Source of the DNA: Escherichia phage vB_EcoM_G2540
Sequence record: MK327936.1
Reading direction: 5' to 3' (one strand)
Length of the DNA stretch: 64,000 nucleotides
Positions within the stretch are counted from its first letter, which is position 1; each line of letters begins with the position of its first letter. This document shows positions 4,555-40,532 of the stretch, one piece after another. The notes under the pieces are model-generated. The model was given only the letters and a program-made list of their open reading frames with translations, was not told the origin of the DNA and searched no databases. A program made the position numbers and the translations under genes.

Positions 4555-4582
4555 AGATATATTTATTACATGGTATTTAGAC

Positions 4583-6094
4583 ATGACTGACATTAAAGTA
4601 CATTTTTATGATTTTAGTCACGTGAGAATTGACTGTGAAGAAAGTACATTTCATGAACTCCGTGATTTCTTTAGCTTTGAAGCTGATGGGTATCGTTTTA
4701 ATCCGAAATACAAATATGGCCACTGGGATGGACGAATCCGTCTTTTAGATTATAATCGTCTTCTTCCATTCGGCTTAGTCGGGCAAATTAAAAAGTTCTG
4801 TGATAACTTTGGCTATAAAGCCTGGATTGACCCACAAATTAACGAAAAAGAAGAATTATCAAGAAAAGATTTTGATGAATGGCTTTCTAAATTAGAAATC
4901 TATTCAGGAAATAAAAGAATTGAACCACACTGGTATCAAAAAGATGCAGTGTTCGAAGGATTAGTTAATCGTCGTAGAATTCTTAATCTTCCAACATCTG
5001 CAGGTAAATCTTTAATTCAAGCTTTGCTTGCGCGGTATTATTTGGAAAATTATGAAGGTAAAATTCTTATCATTGTTCCAACAACTGCTCTGACAACTCA
5101 GATGGCTGATGACTTCGTCGACTATCGTTTATTCAGCCATGCAATGATAAAGAAAATTGGTGGCGGAGCATCAAAAGATGATAAATATAAAAATGATGCA
5201 CCAGTCGTTGTTGGTACATGGCAAACTGTAGTTAAACAACCAAAAGAATGGTTCTCACAGTTTGGAATGATGATGAATGATGAATGCCATCTTGCTACAG
5301 GAAAAAGTATTTCATCTATCATATCAGGTTTAAATAACTGTATGTTTAAATTTGGTCTATCTGGTTCATTACGTGATGGCAAAGCCAATATCATGCAGTA
5401 TGTTGGAATGTTTGGTGAAATATTTAAGCCAGTAACGACTTCTAAGTTAATGGAAGATGGACAAGTAACTGAGCTAAAAATTAATAGTATTTTTCTTCGC
5501 TATCCCGATGAGTTCACTACTAAATTAAAGGGAAAAACTTATCAAGAAGAAATAAAAATTATTACTGGGCTTAGTAAAAGAAATAAATGGATCGCTAAAT
5601 TAGCTATTAAGCTTGCGCAAAAAGATGAAAACGCTTTTGTCATGTTTAAACATGTATCACATGGTAAAGCTATTTTCGATTTAATTAAAAATGAATACGA
5701 TAAAGTTTATTACGTATCAGGGGAAGTTGATACCGAAACCCGCAATATAATGAAAACCTTAGCTGAAAATGGTAAAGGAATAATTATAGTAGCTAGTTAT
5801 GGTGTATTTTCTACTGGTATTTCAGTTAAAAATCTGCATCATGTTGTTTTAGCGCACGGTGTTAAATCAAAAATCATTGTATTACAAACAATCGGTCGTG
5901 TATTACGTAAGCATGGTTCTAAGACAATAGCAACCGTCTGGGACCTCATAGATGATTGTGGCGTTAAGCCAAAATCTGCTAATACGAAAAAGAAATATGT
6001 TCATTTGAACTATCTTTTAAAACACGGCATTGATCGTATTCAGCGCTACGCAGATGAAAAATTTAATTACGTAATGAAAACAGTTAATTTATAA
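4583..6094 (+). CDS. uvsW: UvsW DNA/RNA helicase
   Basis: 503 aa; Walker A PTSAGKS and DExH box MNDECH; synteny. Confidence 0.9.
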   Translation: MTDIKVHFYDFSHVRIDCEESTFHELRDFFSFEADGYRFNPKYKYGHWDGRIRLLDYNRLLPFGLVGQIKKFCDNFGYKAWIDPQINEKEELSRKDFDEWLSKLEIYSGNKRIEPHWYQKDAVFEGLVNRRRILNLPTSAGKSLIQALLARYYLENYEGKILIIVPTTALTTQMADDFVDYRLFSHAMIKKIGGGASKDDKYKNDAPVVVGTWQTVVKQPKEWFSQFGMMMNDECHLATGKSISSIISGLNNCMFKFGLSGSLRDGKANIMQYVGMFGEIFKPVTTSKLMEDGQVTELKINSIFLRYPDEFTTKLKGKTYQEEIKIITGLSKRNKWIAKLAIKLAQKDENAFVMFKHVSHGKAIFDLIKNEYDKVYYVSGEVDTETRNIMKTLAENGKGIIIVASYGVFSTGISVKNLHHVVLAHGVKSKIIVLQTIGRVLRKHGSKTIATVWDLIDDCGVKPKSANTKKKYVHLNYLLKHGIDRIQRYADEKFNYVMKTVNL

Positions 6095-14999: not shown

Positions 15000-17057
15000 C
15001 TACATTTTGAACTTTTTAGACATTCCGTTGATGTTAACCAAAGAAGCTAATATTTGAGAAACTTCGTTTTCCTCTTCTTTTGATTCTTCTACAAGGAATT
15101 GATTAAATCCAGCCATTGGACGAACTTCACCAGTTTCCATTAAATGGTCGCCATCATATACTGATTCTTCTAATTGTTCAGAAGGAGGAACGATTGTACC
15201 TTCGATTAGATACTTGTTATAAGCAGTTTCTTTCATAAAGTACGTACTTACTTTATTAATCTTTAGTAAAATTCCGCGCGGTAGAATAACTTCAGCTTCT
15301 GATGGAAATCCTGATAAATGACCTGGAACGATAACTTTGATTCGCTCAGCTCCTTTAATTACCATACCCACGCTAGTTTCAGCATCTTCATTAGCATATG
15401 TAGAATGACTACCCATATGCATCAAATCTTCTGCATCAACGGAATCTTCTCCTTCACCAGAAAATACTGCGCCGGAATCATCTAGAGCCATATAGTTTTT
15501 ACCATGCTCACCGAAGATATTTGGTTTAAGCGATGTGGATACGAAGTTCTTGAAATAAAACATTTTATTTTCAATGTTATGACGCAAAGTTTTAAAGGTA
15601 ACTTCTTGTCCACGGTAAAGCGTAGTTCCTGGAGGAAGAACTGAACCTTTAGCGAATGCAGAATCCAACGTCTCGATGTGCTTAATAGCACGTTCCATAT
15701 ATTCTTCACGGGTAGAATCTGGTTTACCCAAAAGGAACGAGTTCATTTCAACATATGAATCAGCACAATAATCTTCAATTACGTCAGATTCAGCCTGAGT
15801 TAATCCTTTTGGAGTTACTTCGGTGCTTGCGTATTCATACGCCTGGGCGGCAGATTCATTAATCAATTTATAAATGCCATTCATGACGAATTGAATAATA
15901 GCTGTCTTTTCATCTGGCGTGGCTTTAGAACCTTTAACTAAATCATTAATAATTTTCTTAATAACATCAAAGCTATTAGAAATATTAATGTCAGCAAGAT
16001 CGCTTAAAATTTTATCAGTTTTATAATCAAAGAATTCTTTATTCTTTAAATATTCTTGAGAACCTTGATATGTTATATCGCTCTGCAGCTTGATAGATGG
16101 ATCACGTAAACGCGCATGGGCCAATGCGATATGATTTCGGAAGTTTTCTAGTTCATAATCGCTAGATTTAAAACGAGAAGCACTCCTCATACCACCAATA
16201 GCTCCTTTGCTGAAGTTTGAACCAATCTGAATAACGCCAGAGTTCATTGGTCCTTCTGCTTTATACACCGGAACTTTAAATTCAAACTCTTGATATTTCT
16301 TAGCAGCGAAGCTATCACCCTGAAGTGAAGCATCGACAGTAGAATATTGAGCTTGTGCTGCTAATCGACGACTGATTTTAGTTTTCTGAATAACAGCTTG
16401 GTCCGTGCGTTTATCATTTTCTAAAGCAATAGAAGCAGCAACAGCGACAGCTTTAGGAACAGCATTTCCTGTTTTAACGTCTACATAAACATCACCGACC
16501 TTTGATTCAACTTTTGTGAATAACTCAGTTGAAATAGGAGGTACACCTGGAATGTCTTCTAAATTGGCATTTTTACGGTAAACCATAATATATGCGTACT
16601 TTTTATCGTAATCCCAGATTTCCTTTAAAAGAACATATCGACCTGCTCCTTTAGTACGTACTAAACGGTCAGCAATAACTTGCATTTGACGAGCAGCGCC
16701 ATTTGTTTTACTCTTTAGTACGCGAAATAAGCATGCATCAATTTTATACTGTTTCATTGTTTGAAGAGCAGTATCAAAAACAGCATTAATGACGCCAATT
16801 GGATTTCCACCCAAGTTTTTAAGCTTAACTAACGATAATTTCTCGTTGACACCTATCATTACGATATGCATCATTTTATCGCCTGGCTTAACGTTTTTAT
16901 TCGTATCACCGCCAGAGGTGTATGTACAAAATCTAAATCCAGGAAGCACGCTTTCTTCACCGGCTTGAATAGCAAAAATTTGTGGTATTTTATGCTTAGG
17001 ATTTAAGTTAACAACCGGCGCCGAAGCGCCGTCAAATAATTCTGTAATAAGTTCCAT
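15000..17057 (-). CDS. Alt-like ADP-ribosyltransferase, second paralog
   Basis: 685 aa; N-terminus MELITELFD shared with adjacent alt; R-S-E motifs (TLYRGQ, FVSTSL, EAEVILPRG). Confidence 0.8.
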   Translation of the reverse strand: MELITELFDGASAPVVNLNPKHKIPQIFAIQAGEESVLPGFRFCTYTSGGDTNKNVKPGDKMMHIVMIGVNEKLSLVKLKNLGGNPIGVINAVFDTALQTMKQYKIDACLFRVLKSKTNGAARQMQVIADRLVRTKGAGRYVLLKEIWDYDKKYAYIMVYRKNANLEDIPGVPPISTELFTKVESKVGDVYVDVKTGNAVPKAVAVAASIALENDKRTDQAVIQKTKISRRLAAQAQYSTVDASLQGDSFAAKKYQEFEFKVPVYKAEGPMNSGVIQIGSNFSKGAIGGMRSASRFKSSDYELENFRNHIALAHARLRDPSIKLQSDITYQGSQEYLKNKEFFDYKTDKILSDLADINISNSFDVIKKIINDLVKGSKATPDEKTAIIQFVMNGIYKLINESAAQAYEYASTEVTPKGLTQAESDVIEDYCADSYVEMNSFLLGKPDSTREEYMERAIKHIETLDSAFAKGSVLPPGTTLYRGQEVTFKTLRHNIENKMFYFKNFVSTSLKPNIFGEHGKNYMALDDSGAVFSGEGEDSVDAEDLMHMGSHSTYANEDAETSVGMVIKGAERIKVIVPGHLSGFPSEAEVILPRGILLKINKVSTYFMKETAYNKYLIEGTIVPPSEQLEESVYDGDHLMETGEVRPMAGFNQFLVEESKEEENEVSQILASLVNINGMSKKFKM

Positions 17058-17060
17058 GAT

Positions 17061-19154
17061 TTATCCTTGAACGAACTTGTAAGGCATGTTTGTAATATCT
17101 ATGCAAGACGCAATAATTCCAAGAGATGATTCTACTTTCTGTTTAACGTTTGATGAAACAAATGATGCAAAGTCAACTCTGTCTTCTATTTCAATATCAC
17201 CTGTCATTGCAACCAATTCACCAGTTTCCATTAAATGGTCTCCATCATAGATTACCGATTCGGTGAGCTCTTCCGTGGTCATAACTTCAGCTTGAATGAG
17301 TTTTGTATTATTAGATGTTGTTCCGTCATTATTAGAAGCATCAGTTATTTTATTAACTTTGACCATCAATCCACGCGGTAGAATAACTTCAGCTTCTGTT
17401 GCTATTCCGAGACTTCCTGGATATACAACATTAACTTTATGAGCTCCATCAATTGCCCATCCTATTTGAACTTTAACGTATTCAGGATTTTCTTTATACG
17501 CTCTTATTTCGTTTGGATTAATAGTTATTCCTTCTTCATTTTTATCAACTGTTAATTCATTGCGAGCTTCTGGTTCTAAAAGACCAATACCAGCATGTGT
17601 AATTCCAAAACGTCCAAAAATGATAGGAGTTAAAGAAGTAGATACAAAATTTCTGAAGTAGAACACTTTATTTTTAACTAACGCTTCATATATAGGAGCA
17701 GTCATACTTTGAGCACGATAAACTGTAATGCCTTCTGGTATACGGTCACCATTTTCAAAAGCTGAATCTAAGTTATTTATAGCAGATTCAATTTCTTTTT
17801 CACTCATTACATCATATCGTTCTGGATTGTAACGACCTAAAAGAAGATTATTGATGTCAGTATATCCTGAACCGCAATATTCTCTAATGCCACGCTTTTG
17901 TGATGGAGTATATTTAGAACCATCGCGGGCAATAGTAATATCAATCATTGGACCAGCACCAATTCCAGAAAAACTGTAAATCATTCGTTTGAGGAATTTA
18001 GTTTTTGCTGCGTTCCAGGAATTTTTAGTTATTTCTTCCCAGACTTCATCTGGTTGTCCTTTACGATTTTTATTATGATTAGCAAGCCATTTATCTTTAT
18101 AATCTTCAAAGAATTGATTTACAGCTGCTGCGTATTTCTCTAAACATTTTATTGAAGTAGTTGGTTCATTTTTAATTGCATTAAAAATTACTTCTTTAAT
18201 TTTTTCTGAAACTTCACCGACTTGACTCATTGGAAAGAATTTATAATCATAGTGAAGTTCATCTGCCGTTCCTTCAGCAATAATTTTTGCTGCCTTTGTT
18301 TTAGAAGCTAATGAATTAATTCCAATTTTCATTTCTTCTGCTTCGGGAATTAAAGGTGCAGTAGCTGGTTTATTAAAATTAGCTGCTGTAGATTCATACT
18401 TCTGGAATAATTCACTTTCAAATCTAGAAGATTCCAATGACTGACTTTGTGCAATTGCTCTACGGGAAATTTTAACTTTAACGATTACGGCTTGGTCAGA
18501 ACGTTTATCATTTTCTTGTGCAATTGATGCTGCAATTGCCTCATTTTTAGTTACTTGGGCTCCAGTATCTTTATTGATATAAACATCACCAACCTTCGAT
18601 TCAACCTTAGTAAAGAGTTCAGTACTAATTTCTGGAACTCCTGGAATGTCTTCTAGTGATACGTTTTTACGATGTATAAGAATATATGCATACTTTTTAT
18701 CGTAATCCCAGAGTTCCTTAAGAAGGACGTATCTGCCACCTGAACGACTACGGATAAGTCTATCAGCAATAAGTTGAATTTGTCGAGCTTGACCGGCGGT
18801 TTTAGACTTAAGAATGCGTAGCATACATGCATCAATTTTATACTGTTTCATTGTTTGCATTGCTACGGTAAATACTGAATTGATGTAATTAATAGGACTC
18901 GGTCCAAGACCCTTTAATTTAGCAATTGACCCCTTTGCAGTTAATGTAAAAGGAACGATATGCATCATTTTATCGCCCATTTTTAAATCGCGATTAGTAT
19001 CACCTCCAGATGTATAGGTACATAAACGAAAGCCTGGTTGTTCAATTGCATCATCAACATGAACTGAAAAAATTTGTGGTATTTTCTTCTTTGGATTTAA
19101 GTTTGTAATCGGAAGAGTAGTATCTTCGTCAAATAATTCTGTAATGAGTTCCAT
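17061..19154 (-). CDS. alt: Alt ADP-ribosyltransferase
   Basis: 697 aa from second Met (MELITELFD...); R-S-E motifs (TVYRAQ, FVSTSL, EAEVILPRG); late promoter immediately upstream. Confidence 0.85.
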   Translation of the reverse strand: MELITELFDEDTTLPITNLNPKKKIPQIFSVHVDDAIEQPGFRLCTYTSGGDTNRDLKMGDKMMHIVPFTLTAKGSIAKLKGLGPSPINYINSVFTVAMQTMKQYKIDACMLRILKSKTAGQARQIQLIADRLIRSRSGGRYVLLKELWDYDKKYAYILIHRKNVSLEDIPGVPEISTELFTKVESKVGDVYINKDTGAQVTKNEAIAASIAQENDKRSDQAVIVKVKISRRAIAQSQSLESSRFESELFQKYESTAANFNKPATAPLIPEAEEMKIGINSLASKTKAAKIIAEGTADELHYDYKFFPMSQVGEVSEKIKEVIFNAIKNEPTTSIKCLEKYAAAVNQFFEDYKDKWLANHNKNRKGQPDEVWEEITKNSWNAAKTKFLKRMIYSFSGIGAGPMIDITIARDGSKYTPSQKRGIREYCGSGYTDINNLLLGRYNPERYDVMSEKEIESAINNLDSAFENGDRIPEGITVYRAQSMTAPIYEALVKNKVFYFRNFVSTSLTPIIFGRFGITHAGIGLLEPEARNELTVDKNEEGITINPNEIRAYKENPEYVKVQIGWAIDGAHKVNVVYPGSLGIATEAEVILPRGLMVKVNKITDASNNDGTTSNNTKLIQAEVMTTEELTESVIYDGDHLMETGELVAMTGDIEIEDRVDFASFVSSNVKQKVESSLGIIASCIDITNMPYKFVQG

Positions 19155-19179
19155 CATATCCTCTCTAGTGTTTATTCTA

Positions 19180-19206: not shown

Positions 19207-19395
19207 TTAATAATCTATTGGTAAGAGAGTACGATATATTTCAAACTTTGGACCTTTTTCATAGGCATCAAATGTTTCTGTGAATTTATTATAAGCATAT
19301 GCATCTATAAATTCAATCATGATTTGTGATACAGAAGTAGAAACATCTCCACCTTCTTTTTGAGCCACGACAATTGTTTCTAAGTAAGCTTTCAT
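19207..19395 (-). CDS. Hypothetical protein, 62 aa
   Basis: ORF overlapping the ligase stop; followed by GGCC-CGAA-GGCC hairpin. Confidence 0.4.
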   Translation of the reverse strand: MKAYLETIVVAQKEGGDVSTSVSQIMIEFIDAYAYNKFTETFDAYEKGPKFEIYRTLLPIDY

Positions 19396-20855
19396 AAACC
19401 AGTTACCTCATGAAAATCACCAAATACATCCTCGAATGTATTAGCTTTAGTTTTATCTTCACGTAAACGAATCGCAATCGGAAGAAATAATTTAACGTAA
19501 TCAGTGCGGCCATCAGATTTTAACCAACCGTTGCATTCGCACTCTAGAATTTTTCCAATATAATAATTTTGATTTTCCATAATGCGAGTACGATCAAGTT
19601 CATGCGATTTTACACCGGCTTTATCTTTTAAGCCTGAACCAGCATTTACTTTAATTTTTCCACACTCTGATTCAAGAATGAAACCACCTGCTTTAGTAGG
19701 GTCTTTACGGTGAGGATAAATTCCTACAATTTTTAAATCAACATCAATTACTTCTTTAAATTTATAAAGATTTTTTGAACGAGCATTTTCCCATAATCCA
19801 TCGATATTTTTGAGAATAATACCTTCAAGACCTTGGTCAATATACTTTTTGTAAATTACCTTAGCTTCATCTAGGTTATTTACTACTTGGTTTTCAATTA
19901 AAATTACTTTATCATAGCCTGATGTCATTTGTTCTAGTTTAGAAAAACGTACATCATATTTTAAACGAAATGCTGGAAGACCATATATTTCTACTAATGG
20001 AACATAATCCCAGACCTGAAACTTCATGCATTGTGCTTCTTTTTCAGAAATGGTTCCCTTTAAAGATTTATTGGCGATGCCATTAGATGCAGTACGTGAT
20101 TCAGCTACTTCGGCGAATTCTTTAGCTTTACTAATTTCAGGATAAGCATCAAAAAGAAAATCTAGGCCTTCTGGTTCCTTTTCAACTTGCTCATGGTATA
20201 CCAATTCGCCATCAATTAACACACCTTCTGGATGAATCTGGCGGGCTTCAGCAGTCATTTTGATTAACTCTTCCTTAAGAAGATCTAATCCTAGATATTC
20301 ATTGCCAGCTCGTGATAAAAGACGAACATCATCTAATTCATCACCTCTGACTTCGGCAAAGCACCGAGCTCCATCAGCTTTTAACTGGGCAAAGGCTGGA
20401 AATTTGATATTCTTATTAATGCCTTTTTCATCATAAGAACTTGCAAGCATTTGAGGTTGTTCAGGAATTAAACCTGGCCAAACTTTGTTCGCAATAGATA
20501 CTGAAGCGCCACATTCAAGGTCTCGCATCATCACTCGACGCAAAACTTCAACATCATCTTTTTTACCATCGGTGATGTATCCAATTAATTCCTCAATCGC
20601 CGCATTTCCAGTCAATTTCCGAGTAGCTAACGTGAATTCAATGAAGTCAAGCATATCGGTAAGAGTCAACATTCCAAAACTCTGGGTAGCAATACCAGGT
20701 TTAGGCCATTTCTTGATATAATACTGTAACCCACGAGAATAAGTCAGACGATATACTCGTTTAAGCAATTCATTATCTTTATTCTTTTCAAGAATTGCTT
20801 GCTTCTGCTTAGTTGAACCAATAGATGCTATTTCGTTCAGAATTTTAAGAATCAT
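19392..20855 (-). CDS. 30: ATP-dependent DNA ligase gp30
   Basis: 487 aa as T4 gp30; adenylation motif KADGARC (KxDG). Confidence 0.9.
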   Translation of the reverse strand: MILKILNEIASIGSTKQKQAILEKNKDNELLKRVYRLTYSRGLQYYIKKWPKPGIATQSFGMLTLTDMLDFIEFTLATRKLTGNAAIEELIGYITDGKKDDVEVLRRVMMRDLECGASVSIANKVWPGLIPEQPQMLASSYDEKGINKNIKFPAFAQLKADGARCFAEVRGDELDDVRLLSRAGNEYLGLDLLKEELIKMTAEARQIHPEGVLIDGELVYHEQVEKEPEGLDFLFDAYPEISKAKEFAEVAESRTASNGIANKSLKGTISEKEAQCMKFQVWDYVPLVEIYGLPAFRLKYDVRFSKLEQMTSGYDKVILIENQVVNNLDEAKVIYKKYIDQGLEGIILKNIDGLWENARSKNLYKFKEVIDVDLKIVGIYPHRKDPTKAGGFILESECGKIKVNAGSGLKDKAGVKSHELDRTRIMENQNYYIGKILECECNGWLKSDGRTDYVKLFLPIAIRLREDKTKANTFEDVFGDFHEVTGL

Positions 20856-21121
20856 TGTTCATCCTTTAGAGTTTGGTTTACAGCTCTATTATAAATCAAT
20901 TCATCATTAAGCTCAGTCAAAGACCTGTGGTACGTTGTTCTAACTTTATTTCCTTGCATCCAGTGCTTGACGTAAATGAAACCTTGCTCTACACATTTTT
21001 TAAAAATTCGTTCGTCTTTTTGAGCTCGGAATTCTGGATTGCATCTAAAAAATTGATTTACGTGACCGTAATCACGTGTAGTATTACCTTCATTTTCATA
21101 AATAGTGTGAACGACAAACAT
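20852..21121 (-). CDS. Hypothetical protein, 89 aa (30.1-like position)
   Basis: ORF with stop/start overlaps on both sides. Confidence 0.4.
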   Translation of the reverse strand: MFVVHTIYENEGNTTRDYGHVNQFFRCNPEFRAQKDERIFKKCVEQGFIYVKHWMQGNKVRTTYHRSLTELNDELIYNRAVNQTLKDEQ

Positions 21122-21975
21122 TAGAATGCTCCTTGGAAAATATTATCACCACTACCACTAGTAAGTCTATTAAAATACCCTGCATCGCCAGGCTTAATAT
21201 AACTCCACGTATGGAATGGATGCATCTGGTGTGAGTGCGTATAATATGGATGATATGGATTATAAGGATTAAATCCAGGAGTTCTCCAGGTAGTGTTCCA
21301 AGGAAAAGAATCGTTTTTGATCATCTTCTCGATTGCATCTTTTATAGCTTTTTCACTATCAAAACTTTCTTTATTTTCCTTCGGTGAAAAAAGCTTATTC
21401 TCTACATCATTCCATGTATAAACTCGCTGAGCAGTTTTTGGAATACTGTCACGCTCCCCTCGAGCCATCCAATAAACAGGAACACTTAATATTTCACTCG
21501 CATGATCGCAGTGGTGAGCGAGATCGTCGATATAACAAATTACGTTATATTTCTCTTTTGCCTTTTTGAACAACTCTTCTTTTGAAGAATCATGACCACA
21601 CATCAATACTTCTGAGAAGGCACCAGGAAAAAGAGCATTCAAATTAAATTGACGATTCAACAAAGCATCAATAGAATCACCCAATGCTGTAACAGCTACA
21701 AAATTATAATCTTCTTTTAATTTGTTAATTACACACAGGGCATCTTTATATGGAGACAAATAGCGAATAAAATCTGAACGATTATACTTTTCGATTAATT
21801 TAACACCGAGTTCTTCATCGCAATTAAAGAGCTTACCAGGAGAAATAAATTTTTCGTCCTGAATCATTTTTAAAATATGTTCTAATGGAAGATTATATTT
21901 TTGGGCAAAATAAGGAAGACCTGATTGCCAGCTTAAACATACTCCATCAATATCAGTTAAAATAGTAGGCTTCAT
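21121..21975 (-). CDS. HAD-superfamily hydrolase-like protein (30.2-like)
   Basis: 284 aa; N-terminal DxDGV motif (LTDIDGVCL) typical of HAD phosphatases. Confidence 0.5.
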   Translation of the reverse strand: MKPTILTDIDGVCLSWQSGLPYFAQKYNLPLEHILKMIQDEKFISPGKLFNCDEELGVKLIEKYNRSDFIRYLSPYKDALCVINKLKEDYNFVAVTALGDSIDALLNRQFNLNALFPGAFSEVLMCGHDSSKEELFKKAKEKYNVICYIDDLAHHCDHASEILSVPVYWMARGERDSIPKTAQRVYTWNDVENKLFSPKENKESFDSEKAIKDAIEKMIKNDSFPWNTTWRTPGFNPYNPYHPYYTHSHQMHPFHTWSYIKPGDAGYFNRLTSGSGDNIFQGAF

Positions 21976-22436
21976 AGAGAGTCTCTTAATAGGTTTAACA
22001 CATCAATAAATTCAGCTTCGGTTAGTATTGTATCATCTTTTGTTAGACCACTAGCCATGCTGTGCTTCAAAACTTTTCCTTTCGAGGCTTGTAATGCATC
22101 GCGAAAGCCCCTATTTTGGATCGCTGCTTCAAAATATGCATTTGTGTATAATTCTTTCCACGCTGGGGAGTATCTTGAAAATGGAACTCCAAGCCAGAAG
22201 AGGGTCCCACGGTCCTGAGCTCTAGCATAAGACCTTCCAGCTTGTTGGGCGGCAAGCCCAGATAACCCAAATATACGACGTTGTTGTTCAACGTTTTTCA
22301 CCTTGCATCCTTGGAGGAATCCTTCAAGACCTCCAAATTGAATACCATCCATAACGAAAGGCCAATGGGCGAAATTACTTAATGCGCATGATGGCCACCT
22401 AAAATTGCTTCTAATCTCTAACTCAGACATTTTCAA
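21972..22436 (-). CDS. NADAR/YbiA-like (DUF1768) domain protein (30.3-like)
   Basis: 154 aa; motif SNFAHWPF...DG..F...E.FLQ..K resembles the NADAR signature. Confidence 0.5.
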   Translation of the reverse strand: MKMSELEIRSNFRWPSCALSNFAHWPFVMDGIQFGGLEGFLQGCKVKNVEQQRRIFGLSGLAAQQAGRSYARAQDRGTLFWLGVPFSRYSPAWKELYTNAYFEAAIQNRGFRDALQASKGKVLKHSMASGLTKDDTILTEAEFIDVLNLLRDSL

Positions 22437-22437
22437 T

Positions 22438-22611
22438 GCTTATAATTTCAACATCAGCCCAATGACCATAGCAAGGAAGACGAAATTCAACTGGCCATCT
22501 AATATAATAGACTCAACTTGTGGTTCTTCGTGTTCATCAGTATACGGATTTTTATCTGTTACTTTATATGTGACCTTAATGTACTGAATTCCAAAAATCT
22601 TATTAATTATA
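22438..22611 (-). CDS. Small hypothetical protein with C-terminal hydrophobic segment (~57 aa)
   Basis: ATG-initiated ORF filling the gap between neighbouring genes; below ORF-track cutoff. Confidence 0.3.
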
Positions 22612-22612
22612 T

Positions 22613-22810
22613 TCATACTAATTCCTTTAATCCGTAGATAGGAGATAATTCATCGCCCATATGAAGGTCTTCATTTCCATCTACCCAAGAAACAATATAA
22701 GCCTCTTTTACTTGAACGTCTCCCAATTTAAATGCGGGTAAAACCTTAGAAATTAATCCAGGTATACCAACTCCCTTTAATTCAACAGTTTGACCTAAAA
22801 AGAATTTCAT
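22613..22810 (-). CDS. Hypothetical protein, 65 aa
   Basis: ORF in 30.x block. Confidence 0.35.
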   Translation of the reverse strand: MKFFLGQTVELKGVGIPGLISKVLPAFKLGDVQVKEAYIVSWVDGNEDLHMGDELSPIYGLKELV

Positions 22811-23569: not shown

Positions 23570-23902
23570 TTATTTTACTACTTTCCAATGCTGCATGTCA
23601 AGTTTACCAACTTTTTTCATCTTCTCAATTAAGCGTTCGGCACGTTGGCGAGCTGTAACATAATACCATTCACCTAATTCATTTTGTTCAATTTTTCCAA
23701 CGATTACTGTATTCAATTCATAAATCCAACCAGTAAAGAAATTATGAACTTGAATTGTAAAGGTGAAATCTGTTCCCATACCTTCTGTTGTTTCTACTTC
23801 AATAATATCACCTTCAACTGCCATTAAGAACCACATAGTTTCATCATATTTACCATTGAAGCATTTAGTTTTAACTGCAGCGTTCAGATTAATCGTTTTC
23901 AT
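23570..23902 (-). CDS. Hypothetical protein, 110 aa
   Basis: ORF directly downstream of an early promoter. Confidence 0.45.
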   Translation of the reverse strand: MKTINLNAAVKTKCFNGKYDETMWFLMAVEGDIIEVETTEGMGTDFTFTIQVHNFFTGWIYELNTVIVGKIEQNELGEWYYVTARQRAERLIEKMKKVGKLDMQHWKVVK

Positions 23903-26683: not shown

Positions 26684-26916
26684 AGTACGCCATACACCCT
26701 TTGTGCTTCAACTAATCCATCAAAATCCAATTTGAGATGTGTTATTTGGTCACCATCACCTGGATTCACAATTACTAATACCGAACGAGGAGTTTCGGTA
26801 ATAACACGAACCGACGTTTCAGGAAATCGTTCAGAAACCTTATTTACCAATTCTTGAGCAAATAGTTTAACTTTTTCTTGGAATTCTTTAACAGTAATTG
26901 GTTTTTCGCTTAGCAT
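26680..26916 (-). CDS. Hypothetical protein, 78 aa
   Basis: ORF in cd-pseT ORFan block. Confidence 0.45.
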   Translation of the reverse strand: MLSEKPITVKEFQEKVKLFAQELVNKVSERFPETSVRVITETPRSVLVIVNPGDGDQITHLKLDFDGLVEAQRVYGVL

Positions 26917-27437
26917 GTTGATCCTAGCTCCTTACTTTCAACATTTTTAACTAATTTGACAGAAACTAATTCAGCATCTTGGGTAATCATTACCGGACCT
27001 TCTTCATGCTCTTCAAGATATTCTAGAGCTTTCTTTTTAGCTTCTTCCTTCGTATCAGTTTGAGCATAGATATAGAACATACAACCAGTAATACCTACTA
27101 CTTTCCACTTAATTTCTTTATCAGTTTTAATTTCAAATTTACTTACAGAATCATCTTTTTGAACTTCTTCGAAAAAAGAATATTCTAACATATAAGCAAT
27201 TGAAAATAACGGGCTAACTTTATAGGATTCACCCATTACATCAACAGCTTTATACCAACAATCATCAATTTCACGTTTAATGCTAATAACATTTTTCGCA
27301 GGATCTATTTTTACTTTAAATGAATTTTCCCCAATAAACTGGGCAATTCGTTTATTAGCCCCGCAAGTTTCATTAAAAATATCTTTATACCCAGTTTTAA
27401 AGCGATAAACCTTATCTTCTTCAAACCATTCGCTCAT
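26910..27437 (-). CDS. Hypothetical protein, 175 aa
   Basis: ORF directly downstream of an early promoter. Confidence 0.5.
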   Translation of the reverse strand: MSEWFEEDKVYRFKTGYKDIFNETCGANKRIAQFIGENSFKVKIDPAKNVISIKREIDDCWYKAVDVMGESYKVSPLFSIAYMLEYSFFEEVQKDDSVSKFEIKTDKEIKWKVVGITGCMFYIYAQTDTKEEAKKKALEYLEEHEEGPVMITQDAELVSVKLVKNVESKELGSTC

Positions 27438-27977: not shown

Positions 27978-29385
<1,408 letters not shown>

Positions 29386-29389
<4 letters not shown>

Positions 29390-32446: not shown

Positions 32447-33614
32447 TTTTAAAACTCATCATAACTTTATCATCAACGTCATTATCAATCTGTGCTACAA
32501 GATAAGATGACAGTTCTACTTCTTGTGGCGCGGATTGAACATTATCAGAATTAAGATATTCACGAATCCAAGGATATGGATGTTTAACAGGAGCATCGGT
32601 AATTGGGCATGGAAGACCGCACTGTTTCATACGAGATACAGTTAAGTAATCAATAAAGCTCCACATGCTATTTGTATTTAATCCAGGAACATCGCCATCT
32701 TTAAATAAATGAACTGCCCAATCTTTTTCTTGGCGATTAACTTCCATGAAAATATCAACTGCTTCTTGTTCACACTCTTGAGCAATTTTAACCCATTCAT
32801 CGCCATCAGTGCCAAGTTGAAGTTGACGAATAATATATTGGGTGCCTTTAAGGTGAAGCTGTTCATCGCGTGCAATGAACTTCATAATCTTGGCATTACC
32901 TTCCATGATTTCCATGTTCTTATGGAAGTTAAAGGTACATGCGAAAGATACATAAAAACGAATAGCTTCCAATGCGTTGATTACATGCAAACAGAGGTAA
33001 AGAGATTTCATTAGCTCACGCTTCCAATATGTCTCATGCTCAATAGCATCTTCAATAACGTCTTCGTCTGCATTAATTTCTTTTTGGTATTCGATATCAG
33101 CTTTAGCGTTTTCCCAATAACGAGTTTTAATCAGAACATCATCATAATAACGTCCAATGGATTCAGCACGTTTCATAATAGCTTCATCTAATACAATTTC
33201 ATCAAATACCTTCGATGGATCAGTATAAAGATTTCGCATGATATGTGTATATGAACGGCTGTGAATAGTTTCACTAAAAGTCCACGTAGCAACCCATGTA
33301 TCAAGGCTTGGGTCTGAAATTAATGACATAAGTACAGCAGACGGCGCACGACCCTGAATGCTATCCAAAAGTGATTGATACTTCAGGTTATTAGTAAAAA
33401 TATTTTGCTGGTACTGAGGAAGCTTATTAAACTGTGCAGCATCCATCATTAAGTTTACTTCTTCAGGACGCCAAAAAAATGATAAAGATTTCTCAATAAG
33501 TTCTTCAAATACTCTATGTCGTTGAATATCATATCGAGCTAAACCCAATCCAGAACCAAAAAACATCGGCTCAGTCAAAATATTAACAGGGGATGTATTA
33601 AAAACTGTACTCAT
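32436..33614 (-). CDS. nrdB: Ribonucleotide reductase small subunit, intronless
   Basis: 392 aa continuous ORF; size and synteny match T4 NrdB. Confidence 0.9.
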   Translation of the reverse strand: MSTVFNTSPVNILTEPMFFGSGLGLARYDIQRHRVFEELIEKSLSFFWRPEEVNLMMDAAQFNKLPQYQQNIFTNNLKYQSLLDSIQGRAPSAVLMSLISDPSLDTWVATWTFSETIHSRSYTHIMRNLYTDPSKVFDEIVLDEAIMKRAESIGRYYDDVLIKTRYWENAKADIEYQKEINADEDVIEDAIEHETYWKRELMKSLYLCLHVINALEAIRFYVSFACTFNFHKNMEIMEGNAKIMKFIARDEQLHLKGTQYIIRQLQLGTDGDEWVKIAQECEQEAVDIFMEVNRQEKDWAVHLFKDGDVPGLNTNSMWSFIDYLTVSRMKQCGLPCPITDAPVKHPYPWIREYLNSDNVQSAPQEVELSSYLVAQIDNDVDDKVMMSFKKYF

Positions 33615-34252
33615 TTAGAATCCTTAAATTTACATTTATCATAATGCCATCTTAAAGCATTGCCTTTATTAACTTTCTTGCCACAATGCGGACAAGGCGG
33701 ATACTCTGTACCTTGCTTAGTTCTCAAAGAAATCAAATCACGGGTTTCTTTAGTATGAGGAACATCTCTTGTCGGAGAGATTGTACCATACATCGGATTA
33801 AGCACGCCGACTTTAGCAGCAGCTATATTCTTTTTAGCTTCTTCGGTTTTAGGTTTTCTCATGCGAGCTAAATGCTCTTTGGTAAATTTCCTTCCTTTAA
33901 GGGCTCTACTTATCTTTTCTCTGGTTTCCATAGAAACTTCACGTCCTATAGCAGCTTCAGATAAACGTCGTCTACCTAATTCGTACAGTTGAGAAGAAAT
34001 TTTATATGAGCGATTTTTACCAGTCAAGCACATTAAACCAAAAGCTTTCTTTAATCCTGGGGTGTCATATATTTTACATAAAAGCCAATGAGCTATAAAA
34101 TGTTCTCTGGCTGTTAATTCAACTAAATTTTCCTTATCATCAGAACCTCCCATACATTTAGGGATTATATGATGTGTCTCTTTATATTCTAGTAAAGATT
34201 CCCGAGCCTGAGCTCGGGAAATTAGGTCGTTATAGATTTTTTGATAATTCAT
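33611..34252 (-). CDS. mobE: Free-standing HNH homing endonuclease (MobE-like)
   Basis: 213 aa; HNH motif HHIIPKCMGGSDDKENLVELTAREHFIAH; C-terminal CPHCG...C zinc finger; TAATG coupled to nrdA. Confidence 0.75.
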   Translation of the reverse strand: MNYQKIYNDLISRAQARESLLEYKETHHIIPKCMGGSDDKENLVELTAREHFIAHWLLCKIYDTPGLKKAFGLMCLTGKNRSYKISSQLYELGRRRLSEAAIGREVSMETREKISRALKGRKFTKEHLARMRKPKTEEAKKNIAAAKVGVLNPMYGTISPTRDVPHTKETRDLISLRTKQGTEYPPCPHCGKKVNKGNALRWHYDKCKFKDSK

Positions 34253-37382: not shown

Positions 37383-38398
37383 CATTATGTTCAGATAAGG
37401 TCGTTAATCTTACCCCGGAATTATATCCAGCTACATGTCACCATGCAGAGCAGACTATATCTCCAACTTGTTAAAGCAAGTTGTCTATCGTTTCGAGTCA
37501 CTTGACCCTACTCCCCAAAGGGATAGTCGTTAGGCATTTATGTAGAACCAATTCCATTTATCAGATTTTACACGATAAGTAACTAATCCAGACGAAATTT
37601 TAAAATGTCTAGCTGCATCTGCTGCACATTCAAAAATAACCCCATCACATGAAATCTTTTTAATATTACTAGGCTTTTTACCTTTCATCTTTTCTGATAT
37701 TTTAGATTTAGTTATGTCTGAATGCTTATGATTAAAGAATGAATTATTTTCACCTGAACGATTTCTGCATTTACTACAAGTATAAGCAGAAGTTTGTATG
37801 CGAACACCGCACTTACAAAACTTATGGGTTTCTGGATTCCAACGCCCATTTTTACTTCCGGGTTTACTGTAAAGAGCTTTCCGACCATCAGGTCCAAGTT
37901 TAAGCATCTTAGCTTTAACAGTTTCAGAACGTTTCTTAATAATTTCTTCTTTTAATGGATGCGTAGAACATGTATCACCAAACGTTGCATCAGCAATATT
38001 GTATCCATTAATTTTAGAATTAAGCTCTTTAATCCAAAAATTTTCTCGTTCAATAATCAAATCTTTCTCATATGGAATTTCTTCCAAAATAGAACATTCA
38101 AACACATTACCATGTTTGTTAAAAGACCTCTGAAGTTTTATAGAAGAATGGCATCCTTTTTCTAAATCTTTAAAATGCCTCTTCCATCTCTTTTCAAAAT
38201 CTTTAGCACTTCCTACATATACTTTATTGTTTAAAGTATTTTTAATCTGATAAATTCCGCTTTTCATAAATACCTCTTTGAATATAGAAGTATTTATTAA
38301 AGGGCAGTCCTACAATTTAGCACGGGATTGTCTACTAGAGAGTTTCCCCGTTTAGATAGATTACAAGTATAAGTCACCTTATACTCAGGCCTCAATTA
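37383..38398 (-). mobile_element. Group I self-splicing intron in td, carrying I-TevI
   Basis: 1016 nt; 5' end TAATTGAGGCCTGAGTATAAGGTGACTTATACTTG... and 3' end ...CTGAACATAATG match the T4 td intron as I recall it. Confidence 0.85.
37530..38267 (-). CDS. I-TevI: Intron-encoded GIY-YIG homing endonuclease I-TevI
   Basis: 245 aa; N-terminal GIY-YIG (SGIYQIKN...KVYVGSA); zinc finger and C-terminal DNA-binding region; inside the td intron. Confidence 0.9.
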   Translation of the reverse strand: MKSGIYQIKNTLNNKVYVGSAKDFEKRWKRHFKDLEKGCHSSIKLQRSFNKHGNVFECSILEEIPYEKDLIIERENFWIKELNSKINGYNIADATFGDTCSTHPLKEEIIKKRSETVKAKMLKLGPDGRKALYSKPGSKNGRWNPETHKFCKCGVRIQTSAYTCSKCRNRSGENNSFFNHKHSDITKSKISEKMKGKKPSNIKKISCDGVIFECAADAARHFKISSGLVTYRVKSDKWNWFYINA

Positions 38399-38947
38399 AC
38401 CCAAGAAAACATCTACCGAACGTTGATACCACTGAAGGTCAAGGTATCCATTACGAACATTAAATTGATAGAACATATGACAAGGAGGTAATGCCATATA
38501 TTTAAGTTCAGCTGGATTCCATGCTGAAACAATTTGACGCCTATCATTTGGCAGTTTTTTAATACGATCAATAACTTCTATAATTTGGTCTACACCACCA
38601 AAATCACGCCACTGTTTTCCATAAATTGGACCAAGTTCACCGCTATGGTATCCTAAATCTTTTGCTTGATTTTCGTAATTTTCATCCCAAACTGTTTTGC
38701 CTTGGATTAACGAATCATGTTGAATTAATCGCAAATCATTGACATTTGTGCTTCCCGATAAAAACCATAGAAGCTCAGCAATACATGCATTCCACGCAAG
38801 CTTCTTAGTTGTTACCGCAGGAAAACCTTTAGTTAAATCCCAGCGTAATTTAGTACCGAACAAAGCAATTGTTCCTGTGCCTGTTCGGTCATCGGTTTCA
38901 TAGCCATTTTCAAAAATGTCTTTAATTAAATCTTGGTATTGTTTCAT
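38399..38947 (-). CDS. td: Thymidylate synthase, exon 1
   Basis: 183 codons ending ...QRSVDVFLG, then intron; exon1+exon2 = 286 aa. Confidence 0.85.
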
Positions 38948-38991: not shown

Positions 38992-39339
38992 TCAATACGG
39001 TTTAGCATCAAATTTTCTTTCAATTTCAGGCGTAAAATACAATTCTTTACCACGCTTGGAAAAGCGACCAATAATATGATAATTATTCTCATCAAACGTG
39101 ATATTGCCGATATCCATAGCTTTCAACCAAATATCGATATTTCTGTCAAGCTTTATATCAAAATTCCAATACGGAGAACTATTACCGAAAATACTGCAAG
39201 CGGATTCAGTGAAACAACTGCTATAAATTTTGTCTTTAGGAACTACTAATTGATAGACGCCTTTAATAAACTGAGGACCCTGCCATTTTGGTTGTTTCGC
39301 GTCTTTTTCTAATAGAATAGGGTAATAATTAAAATTCAT
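38992..39339 (-). CDS. Hypothetical protein, 115 aa, inserted between frd and td
   Basis: ATG-initiated ORF with its own weak SD; no motif I recognise. Confidence 0.5.
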   Translation of the reverse strand: MNFNYYPILLEKDAKQPKWQGPQFIKGVYQLVVPKDKIYSSCFTESACSIFGNSSPYWNFDIKLDRNIDIWLKAMDIGNITFDENNYHIIGRFSKRGKELYFTPEIERKFDAKPY

Positions 39340-39358: not shown

Positions 39359-40188
<830 letters not shown>

Positions 40189-40199
40189 ATTATCTCCTA

Positions 40200-40532
40200 T
40201 TAAAAAGGATCAGGAACATATCCACTAGCTTTAATCATTTTAACTAATGTTACCATTCCTTTGTTAACTGCTTGTGAGATTTCATCAAAAACTTCATCAT
40301 TAAAAAGTTCTAGCACACCCTTCTGAACTTTTAATTTACAGCCAACAATTTCGTCATCGCCTATAGTAAATTCATTACCGCCAATTCCACCGAAAAACTT
40401 AATTACACCAGTTAACTGTCTTCCACGAGAATATGGGTCATGTGATAAAGTAATATGAGTCACCCCAGGTACAGTTTTAAATTGACAGCGAATGTTTACT
40501 TGAGAAATTCCAGTTACATGAATGTCAGACAT
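40200..40532 (-). CDS. Hypothetical protein, 110 aa
   Basis: ORF in 32-frd interval. Confidence 0.45.
   Translation of the reverse strand: MSDIHVTGISQVNIRCQFKTVPGVTHITLSHDPYSRGRQLTGVIKFFGGIGGNEFTIGDDEIVGCKLKVQKGVLELFNDEVFDEISQAVNKGMVTLVKMIKASGYVPDPF

Follow-up and report, generated by a model that had tools for sequence, protein, structure and literature searches.

[quoted passage not shown] In vitro, G-ADPr is hydrolysed by T4 AdfN, and T-ADPr and C-ADPr are not (PMC11125620; PMC12945103). In the published T4 HIDEN-SEQ screen with DarTG1, insertions in 30.3 undergo a 150-fold drop (log2FC -7.25, padj 0), while in the published T4 transposon data obtained without DarTG1 the gene is non-essential, with insertions at 27 of its 28 sites. 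DarT1 toxicity in uninfected cells is not rescued by T4 AdfN, and non-T-even phages are rescued weakly (PMC11125620, PMC11825919); hydrolase activity alone is therefore not a full account of the effect in vivo, and a T-even factor potentiating AdfN in vivo has been postulated (PMC11825919).

The window, by which the whole analysed stretch of 64 kb is meant, is collinear with positions 107798-153999 of T4, and its source genome is T4-like (Tequatrovirus). On the minus strand an open reading frame extends from a TTG at 22436 or an ATG at 22430 to the stop at 21972. The in-frame TTG adds two residues and yields the 154-aa version given in the ORF list, and translation probably begins at the ATG at 22430, with a product of 152 aa, as in the T4 annotation and the published residue numbering. 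Judged by its sequence and place, this ORF is orthologous to T4 gene 30.3, adfN (21972..22430, minus strand), and encodes a predicted 152-aa DNA ADP-ribosylglycohydrolase of the NADAR fold. Its product is identical to T4 gp30.3 at 149 of 152 positions (98%), without gaps and with a common stop codon, and the gene has 30.4 and 30.2 as its neighbours and precedes the ligase gene, in the order 30.4-30.3-30.2-30.1-30-alt.1-alt, which is that of T4. The substitutions relative to T4 AdfN (Q22H, K107R and I125M) are all conservative, and the three sites vary among the homologs of the 9-sequence alignment. The original prediction, that an ORF resembling the NADAR/YbiA family reverses guanine ADP-ribosylation by DarT-type toxins, describes what has been experimentally established for the 98%-identical T4 protein, and was right in its core interpretation, yet the finding is not new: AdfN function in T-even phages has already been published (2023-2026, with T4 gp30.3 described as AdfN in 2024-2026), and no new biology comes from the ORF here.

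By sequence, AdfN belongs to the family PF08010 (Phage_30_3), a sister of PF08719 (NADAR) and outside it. In the direct Pfam scan, PF08010 matched with E = 1.7e-69 and a score of 232.4 bits (cutoff 36), residues 13-152 spanning profile positions 1-138 of 138, and PF08719 gave no match to AdfN even at E up to 1; sub-threshold matches to PF08719 appeared in 7 of 71 longer gp30.3-type relatives, the best of them at E = 1.2e-6. The single-protein searches of Pfam, NCBIfam and PDB with AdfN gave no link to NADAR, the matches being confined to PF08010 and a PHROG of unknown function, with the phmmer matches in PDB amounting to noise. Since the link lacks plain Pfam support, structure, or intermediate sequences or a family profile, is needed to see it. 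With a profile of 9 AdfN-family sequences, E. coli YbiA (2b3w) came at the top of 177,635 PDB sequences, with a marginal E = 0.057; the alignment covers the motif segment that had been quoted in favour of a NADAR resemblance (aligned stretch FSNFAAWPIKVDGKTWPTSEHYFQAQK), and the SEHYFQAQK segment of YbiA falls on the E36/K43 region of AdfN. The AlphaFold model of AdfN (pLDDT 81, pTM 0.81) shows the alpha+beta YbiA/NADAR fold, a helical core flanked by small beta-sheets. The NADAR assignment was reproduced by the fold search and became unambiguous by structure comparison, YbiA being the best structural match of the model as well as the best sequence match. Within the NADAR superfamily, AdfN is a minimal protein consisting of the core alone. 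The Pfam search that had been proposed as a check returned a phage family, PF08010, and not the expected PF08719, so that rejecting the NADAR idea on the lack of a NADAR profile match would be wrong. As for the breadth of the family, an exhaustive profile search collected 1,455 representatives and tblastn 1,510 phage records; its apparent confinement to close T-even relatives in a word-indexed search (22 matches) was a sensitivity artefact.

The ORF carries the motif, exactly as it had been quoted, on the minus strand as LSNFAHWPFVMDGIQFGGLEGFLQGCK, which by alignment to the YbiA motif is the active-site segment, residues 17-43 (22302..22382), and includes the codons of the catalytic E36 (22323-22325) and K43 (22302-22304), residues being numbered from the ATG (numbers from the TTG are higher by 2, so that H123 is H125). 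Both residues of the E-x-F-x-Q-x-x-K helix are invariant in the 9-sequence (A1) and the 71-sequence (A3) alignments, and the activity of T4 AdfN has been shown to be reduced by E36A and K43A (PMC11825919). The third catalytic position, H123 (codon 22062..22064, minus strand), stands in the last beta-strand (LKHS), modelled at 122-126, and shows no variation in A1 and hardly any in A3. The C-terminal helix, the last 15 residues 138-152 (21975..22019, minus strand; modelled at 140-153 in TTG numbering), is intact in the alignment to the T4 stop. In the DarTG1-sensitive RB69 this helix is lost by a frameshift at nt 411 of adfN, and C-terminal truncation of AdfN lowers its activity (PMC11825919). 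The adfN here is without the RB69-type frameshift, its frame being open to the T4 stop codon, and by analogy with T4 AdfN the allele would have the same activity.

Taken together with the published work, the ORF is very probably an AdfN ortholog, that is, a NADAR enzyme that reverses the DarT1 guanine ADP-ribosylation of phage DNA. In the proposed sequence of events, the infection would be sensed by a DarTG1 host, the DarT1 toxin would ADP-ribosylate guanines of the phage DNA, and replication would be blocked; AdfN would then cleave the N-glycosidic bond between ADP-ribose and guanine by means of E36/K43/H123, with the release of ADP-ribose and the return of the DNA to a replicable state. The position of YbiA at the top of both the structural and the sequence matches might instead suggest a YbiA-like housekeeping N-glycosidase whose substrates would be small molecules, either intermediates of the riboflavin pathway or soluble immune signals derived from ADPr, and not DNA adducts. 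However, the removal of G-ADPr from DNA by T4 AdfN has been demonstrated by direct biochemistry and genetics (PMC11825919, PMC11125620, PMC12945103), the third catalytic residue of AdfN is His against Glu in YbiA-type enzymes, and the T4 NADAR cluster lies nearest to DarG1 in the published phylogeny (PMC11825919), so that this housekeeping role is extremely improbable.

The two ADP-ribosyltransferase genes that had been noticed within a few kb of adfN exist and are full-length, but both are tandem Alt paralogs and not DarT-like enzymes. The gene alt (17061..19157, minus strand) encodes the Alt ADP-ribosyltransferase, 71% identical to T4 Alt overall and mosaic relative to it, with nearly identical ends and a divergent middle; the second full-length paralog (15000..17057, minus strand), 41% identical to T4 Alt over the full length, occupies the place of the vestigial alt.-1 and alt.-2 of T4. 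By what is established for T4 Alt, enzymes of this type, including the two paralogs here, are packaged in the virion and modify host proteins, and they are not DNA-modifying relatives of DarT. Their location raises the question of whether AdfN mainly reverses or tunes the ADP-ribosylation or RNAylation made by the phage itself (Alt paralogs, ModA/ModB), or cleans ADP-ribosylated RNA, with the anti-DarT action being secondary. As is well established, the targets of Alt and ModA/ModB are protein arginines and not guanine N-glycosidic adducts; ModB also attaches RNA to proteins. The T4-like NADARs are early genes co-expressed with ADP-ribosyltransferases (PMC9503650), RNA G-ADPr removal has been reported for NADARs, including a phage NADAR (PMC12945103), and in Aeromonas and Ralstonia phages the adfN homolog lies within tRNA gene clusters, all of which would suit such a role. 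However, 30.3 is dispensable without DarTG1 and conditionally essential specifically with it, and alt insertions were neutral in the same DarTG1 screen (log2FC -0.01), which makes a main function in the phage's own ADP-ribosylation or in RNA cleaning highly unlikely.

Directly downstream of adfN lies gene 30.2 (21121..21975, minus strand), whose start overlaps the adfN stop by 4 nt (ATGA) and whose product, a 284-aa HAD-superfamily protein, is 93% identical to T4 gp30.2. The HAD-motif neighbour of the original prediction is borne out, since all four motifs are present (D8xD10, T96, K132 and D150-D151), and among 29 homologs D8, D10, K132, D150 and D151 never vary, with T96 kept in at least 90% of them. 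The model has a core of residues 1-196 with pLDDT above 90 and a variable, disordered C-terminal tail below 50. Foldseek against PDB gave 93 matches with E up to 1e-3, the 50 matches listed being all of the HAD fold, and the best target-normalised TM-scores (0.63-0.70) belonged to deoxyribonucleotidases. Modelling thus indicates that gp30.2 is a real HAD-fold protein with a core closest to the 5'(3')-deoxyribonucleotidase (NT5C) enzymes. The Pfam scan placed gp30.2 in no family above threshold; weak matches among the 29 homologs were to PF00702 (9 of 29) and PF06941 (NT5C, 5 of 29), and the gp30.2 profile matched 2jao with E = 0.0086. With the NT5C family (PF06941; for example PDB 2jao, 2i7d, 3bwv), gp30.2 has in common the N-terminal motif DxDGVL..W/F.SGL, and it differs by an additional tail of 90 residues, variable and disordered, in which His, Pro and Tyr are abundant. 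When T4 was screened by HIDEN-SEQ with DarTG1, 71 insertion sites in 30.2 were neutral (log2FC -0.12, p = 0.61), and gp30.2 is a conserved neighbour outside the anti-DarTG1 mechanism, which the phage does not need in order to overcome DarTG1 in E. coli K-12. The HAD and ADP-ribosyltransferase context that had been taken as support for counter-defence does not serve as such, as both 30.2 and alt are neutral under DarTG1.

Genes for a NADAR and a HAD protein repeatedly occur as a pair: they overlap in Tequatroviruses and Vibrio Schizotequatroviruses, and certain metagenomic proteins are fusions of the two. One may ask whether AdfN and gp30.2 constitute a two-enzyme module, in which the NADAR would free ADP-ribose or another ribosyl adduct and the NT5C-like phosphatase would act on what is released or on some related phosphorylated compound, in which case gp30.2 would be the postulated T-even potentiator of AdfN. 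Besides the gene overlap, this is favoured by the retention of the pair at 58% AdfN identity, by the near-identical genus distributions of gp30.3 and gp30.2 (1,510 and 1,438 phage records), by the Vibrio phage Va3, in which, amid other neighbouring genes, the gene of a PF08010 NADAR overlaps one for a canonical NT5C protein (PF06941), and by the fusion of NADAR and NT5C in one polypeptide (P0132, P0140 and P0247), whose NT5C partners are linked to gp30.2 by hhalign (Prob 84-88%, E ~1e-5); phosphatases coupled to enzymes that deconjugate ADPr have, moreover, been described as a theme (PMC9503650). However, insertions in 30.2 are neutral where those in 30.3 are lost, no HAD gene adjoins the NADAR gene in the loci of Aeromonas 44RR2.8t.2 and Ralstonia RSP15, the HAD motifs are degenerate in 2 of the 3 fusions, and the conservation of T4-like synteny can be passive. 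The HAD domains of the NADAR fusions are canonical NT5C, with a remote kinship to gp30.2 by hhalign, and a hmmsearch with the gp30.2 profile gave zero matches among the gp30.3-type representatives. The two-enzyme module is, accordingly, rather doubtful, and gp30.2 as the postulated potentiating factor is rejected for DarTG1 by the neutral insertions. As 30.2 is unneeded against DarTG1, any joint function of the two proteins would lie elsewhere; that the gp30.3-type NADAR and the NT5C-like HAD phosphatase are a conserved two-component module cooperating in some other context seems unlikely on balance, the candidates for a joint function being other guanine-ADP-ribosylating toxins, RNA adducts, and the removal or reuse of the ADP-ribose set free.

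Directly upstream of adfN lies gene 30.4 (22440..22616, minus strand), a 58-aa ORF identified by similarity to T4 gp30.4, with 40 of 45 residues identical over the N-terminus and a different C-terminus. In the T4 HIDEN-SEQ data with DarTG1, 30.4 was the sole other significantly depleted gene (log2FC -1.79, padj 0.014), which probably reflects a polar effect on adfN. On the other side of 30.2 follow gene 30.1 (20852..21121, minus strand; DUF3045, PF11243 with E = 2.9e-64) and gene 30 (19392..20855, minus strand), the ATP-dependent DNA ligase, collinear with T4 gene 30, so that the proximity of a ligase was correctly noticed. A sigma-70-type promoter-like site (TTGACA-18-TAAAAT, 11/12 near-consensus) upstream of 30.7 (23572..23601, minus strand) may serve as an early promoter of the run of genes from 30.7 to 30 that includes adfN, and adfN would probably be expressed early within this transcription unit. 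In the promoter and terminator scan of the region, the site counts, those of promoter-like sites included, were at chance level, which leaves this site no more than a candidate; scanning the window for tRNA genes and Rfam families gave no matches. The Pfam scan of six ORFs neighbouring adfN found no DarT-type domain, and on the contig of the most distant homolog no DarT-like partner was found, a weak DSP-PTPase-like ORF being all that turned up there.

Thus, adfN accounts for the plaquing of T-even phages on DarTG1-carrying hosts and is a textbook orphan antitoxin-like enzyme of a lytic phage. The assignment is of value for annotation, as among the matches listed of the 1,510 phage records all are named 'hypothetical protein' or something equally uninformative, and the NADAR link is also hidden from a routine Pfam scan of AdfN. 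In comparison with the known systems, the protein here shares E36/K43/H123, the C-terminal helix and the gene neighbourhood with T4 AdfN (gp30.3; Johannesman et al., Nat Commun 2025, PMC11825919), the differences being the three substitutions and the end of 30.4, which overlaps adfN in T4 and stops short of it here. YbiA (PDB 2b3w), the founding NADAR/DUF1768 member, belongs to PF08719, to which AdfN has no significant match, and is a riboflavin-linked housekeeping N-glycosidase that gives no DarT1 protection in vivo (PMC11125620, PMC11825919). The third catalytic residue is His in the phage gp30.3-type proteins, Glu in the YbiA-type and Asp in the DarG1-type ones (PMC11125620, PMC12945103). 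DarG1, the NADAR antitoxin of DarTG1 (for example Geobacter lovleyi NADAR, PDB 8bat), is toxin-linked and has an N-terminal extension, and its role in uninfected cells is not replaceable by T4 AdfN, whereas AdfN here is a core-only protein of 152 aa (PMC11825919, PMC12945103), with its gene flanked by 30.4 and 30.2 instead of a DarT1 toxin gene.

The open reading frame predicted as NADAR-like is located on the minus strand of the window at 21972..22436 and encodes 154 aa from a TTG; an ATG at 22430, two codons 3' of the TTG, gives a protein of 152 aa, is the start annotated in T4 and is consistent with the N-termini of the homologs. The motif behind the original prediction, LSNFAHWPFVMDGIQFGGLEGFLQGCK, was found in this ORF, and the other elements described around it, a HAD neighbour, a nearby ligase and two ADP-ribosyltransferase genes, are all present as ORFs. 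The gene is adfN (gene 30.3 of T4), and its product is identical to T4 gp30.3 at 149/152 positions, without gaps and with a common stop, the three substitutions (Q22H, K107R, I125M) all falling at positions variable among homologs.

In the proposed Pfam check for NADAR/DUF1768, the canonical NADAR model PF08719 gave no match to the product, even at E up to 1; PF08010 (Phage_30_3) matched over the full length (E = 1.7e-69), and YbiA was reached with the family profile. In the search of all PDB sequences with the profile of 9 sequences, E. coli YbiA (2b3w) is the top match, though a marginal one (E = 0.057), with an alignment that covers precisely the motif. NCBIfam returned nothing for the product, and PHROGs placed it in a family of unknown function (phrog_652). 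When 1.84 billion representatives were searched exhaustively with a profile, 1,455 gp30.3-type proteins were found, and the families PF08010 and PF08719 are bridged, because 7/71 of the longer ones match PF08719 as well (best E = 1.2e-6). All the catalytic residues are kept, namely E36 and K43 of the E-G-F-L-Q-x-x-K helix and H123 of the last strand, and a His at the third catalytic position is what distinguishes the phage gp30.3 branch (PMC11125620). Four independent lines, including the profile match, the bridging proteins and the catalytic residues, agree that the adfN product belongs to NADAR.

Several gp30.3-type representatives of about 290 aa (P0123, P0125, P0126, P0138) align with the NADAR profile over two segments, and the phrog_652 profile has 296 positions, of which the T4-type proteins cover only 126-272, which suggests that part of the family is extended at the N-terminus or carries a NADAR copy that is tandem or degenerate. 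The T4 construct is given as 'residues 1-208' in PMC11125620, inconsistent with the 152-aa gene. A protein 100% identical to that of the window was found by tblastn in PV654520.1, 'Pseudomonas phage vB_PSGBLB0006' (142 kb, host P. aeruginosa); this host label is odd, as the sequence looks like Tequatrovirus. The 30.3' annotated in T4 ('internal translation in a different reading frame') is matched by a 74-aa out-of-frame ORF within adfN (22067-22291, minus strand), its conservation in the window being that of an open reading frame only.

The 1.9-kb region around adfN is matched by 684 phage records, nearly all of Escherichia/Shigella T4-like phages, with vB_EcoM_G2133 the best (99.3%). The window 1-48686 is collinear with T4 107798-153999, and the local minus-strand order is that of T4: alt, alt.1, 30 (ligase, 19392..20855), 30.1, 30.2, 30.3, 30.4 through 30.9, rIII and 31. 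The mobile elements differ from those of T4 (window positions 4569-4589, 32938-32941, 33863-34066 and 38396-38947): segE is lacking, the region of mobE has been replaced, and nrdB has no group I intron with I-TevIII, the alignment to T4 showing a clean gap of 600 bp. The td gene is seemingly still split, with a 183-aa exon-1 ORF in a part that is collinear with the intron region of T4, although the Rfam gathering scan of the window reported no group I intron. Minus-strand ORFs without a T4 counterpart at their position encode 175 aa between cd.2 and cd.3 (26910-27437), 106 aa between pseT and pseT.1 (29069-29389) and 115 aa between td and frd (38992-39339); two more, of 81 aa and 110 aa, the latter only partly unmatched, lie between frd and frd.1 in a T4-unmatched stretch (39943-40532, minus strand).

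The function of the T4 gene, renamed adfN ('anti-DarT factor NADAR') by Johannesman et al. (PMC11825919), has been established in that work. Recombination of RB69 with T2/T4 placed the resistance to the defence system DarTG1 at the 3' end of 30.3; RB69 is DarTG1-sensitive, a frameshift in its 30.3 deleting the last 15 residues, and is rescued by plasmid-borne adfN, while T4 and T2 with adfN deleted no longer plaque on DarTG1 cells. AdfN is weakened by E36A, by K43A and by C-terminal truncation; the purified protein strips ADP-ribose from DarT1-modified DNA and does not bind DarT1 (PMC11825919). In vitro, the T4 NADAR hydrolyses ADP-ribosylated guanine and not thymine (PMC11125620), nor cytosine (PMC12945103). 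According to the genome-wide T4 transposon screen HIDEN-SEQ (preprint, 10.1101/2025.11.20.689424), 30.3 is non-essential on plain K-12 (27/28 sites hit) and fully depleted under DarTG1 (log2FC -7.25, padj 0). In this mechanism, ADP-ribosylation of phage-DNA guanine by DarT1 stalls replication, and AdfN cuts the guanine adduct and frees the ADP-ribose. The window allele, 98% identical, should be a functional AdfN, because its C-terminal helix is complete and the three catalytic residues are intact.

The sole other significant gene under DarTG1 in the screen was 30.4 (log2FC -1.79, padj 0.014; 10.1101/2025.11.20.689424), which is the gene immediately 5' of adfN and overlaps the adfN start in T4, the simplest reading being that the T4 depletion is probably a polar effect on adfN. 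In the window, 30.4 (22440-22616, minus strand) encodes 58 aa vs 68 aa in T4, departs from the T4 sequence after about residue 40 and has no overlap with the adfN start.

In uninfected E. coli, DarT1 is not neutralised by T4 AdfN, which also rescues non-T-even phages only weakly; the authors therefore postulate an additional T-even factor (PMC11825919). The neighbouring gene 30.2 (21121..21975, minus strand, 284 aa), which starts within the adfN stop codon with an ATGA overlap of 4 nt, was considered as functionally tied to AdfN, since it could have accounted for this factor. Its product, 93% identical to T4 gp30.2, has no Pfam match, and no mention of gp30.2 was found in the searchable literature. 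In the alignment of 29 diverse homologs the four HAD motifs are kept (D8xD10, K132 and D150-D151 invariant, T96 at least 90%), and beyond residue ~196 the homologs vary, with this part often missing; the predicted model has a core pLDDT above 90 and a disordered tail. Foldseek against PDB returned HAD-fold proteins, with the top target-normalised TM-scores (0.63-0.70) to 5'(3')-deoxyribonucleotidase-type proteins, and the deoxyribonucleotidase 2jao is the sole meaningful PDB sequence match of the family profile (E = 0.0086). The label 'HAD-like hydrolase' is correct because of these motifs, the predicted fold and the 2jao match.

The pairing persists at 58% AdfN identity, and tblastn found AdfN in 1,510 and gp30.2 in 1,438 phage records, with nearly the same genus counts (Aeromonas 77/77, Acinetobacter 69/69, Yersinia 33/33, Klebsiella 272/279). 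In Vibrio phage Va3 (Schizotequatrovirus; locus L007, 2507-3458), the gene of a PF08010 NADAR shares 14 nt with that of a canonical PF06941 NT5C, the pair adjoining the gp47/46 exonuclease genes and not ligase, and the metagenomic representatives P0132, P0140 and P0247 combine a gp30.3-type NADAR and an NT5C-like domain in a single polypeptide; hhalign links gp30.2 to these NT5C proteins as a remote relative (E about 1e-5). However, only P0132 has the complete HAD catalytic set, the motifs of P0140 and P0247 being degenerate; in Aeromonas 44RR2.8t.2 (L009, 2501-2950) and Ralstonia RSP15 (L008, 2495-3013) the NADAR gene lies inside a tRNA gene cluster with no HAD gene adjacent; and 30.2 insertions were neutral under DarTG1 (71 sites, log2FC -0.12, p = 0.61; HIDEN-SEQ, 10.1101/2025.11.20.689424). 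The conclusion is that gp30.2 does not belong to the anti-DarTG1 mechanism; the NADAR-HAD pairing itself is recurrent and real.

In RSP15, the PF08010 NADAR gene is followed by a 76-aa ORF and a DUF2828/DUF7788/vWA protein annotated as RNA-binding, which, with the tRNA-cluster setting, is a hint that the role of some members of the family is related to RNA. Among the homologs examined, the most distant one (40% identity; metagenomic locus L005, 615-1738) has a non-T4 context (RuvC, DUF4286, Spi protease-inhibitor domain) and comes right after a 206-aa ORF with weak DSP-PTPase-type matches, below threshold (E about 4e-4); a gp30.3-type NADAR would here have a phosphatase of a second type, unrelated to the HAD one, as its neighbour.

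The 'two ADP-ribosyltransferases' are tandem, full-length Alt paralogs on the minus strand (15000-19157). The 698-aa protein (17061..19157) is a mosaic, 71% identical overall to T4 Alt, with ends about 99% identical and a divergent catalytic middle; the 685-aa copy (15000..17057), 41% identical over the full length, occupies the position of the T4 vestigial fragments alt.-1 and alt.-2. In T4, Alt proteins are packaged and act as ADP-ribosyltransferases on proteins of the host; they are not known to modify DNA as DarT does. Since Alt targets proteins and not DNA, the nearby Alt genes lend no mechanistic support to a counter-defence role; alt insertions, too, were neutral under DarTG1 (log2FC -0.01; HIDEN-SEQ, 10.1101/2025.11.20.689424). 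The argument from the HAD and ADP-ribosyltransferase context is thus not supported. The predicted reversal of guanine ADP-ribosylation and anti-DarT function, in turn, is already known, as published for the T4 AdfN (PMC11825919, PMC11125620, PMC12945103).
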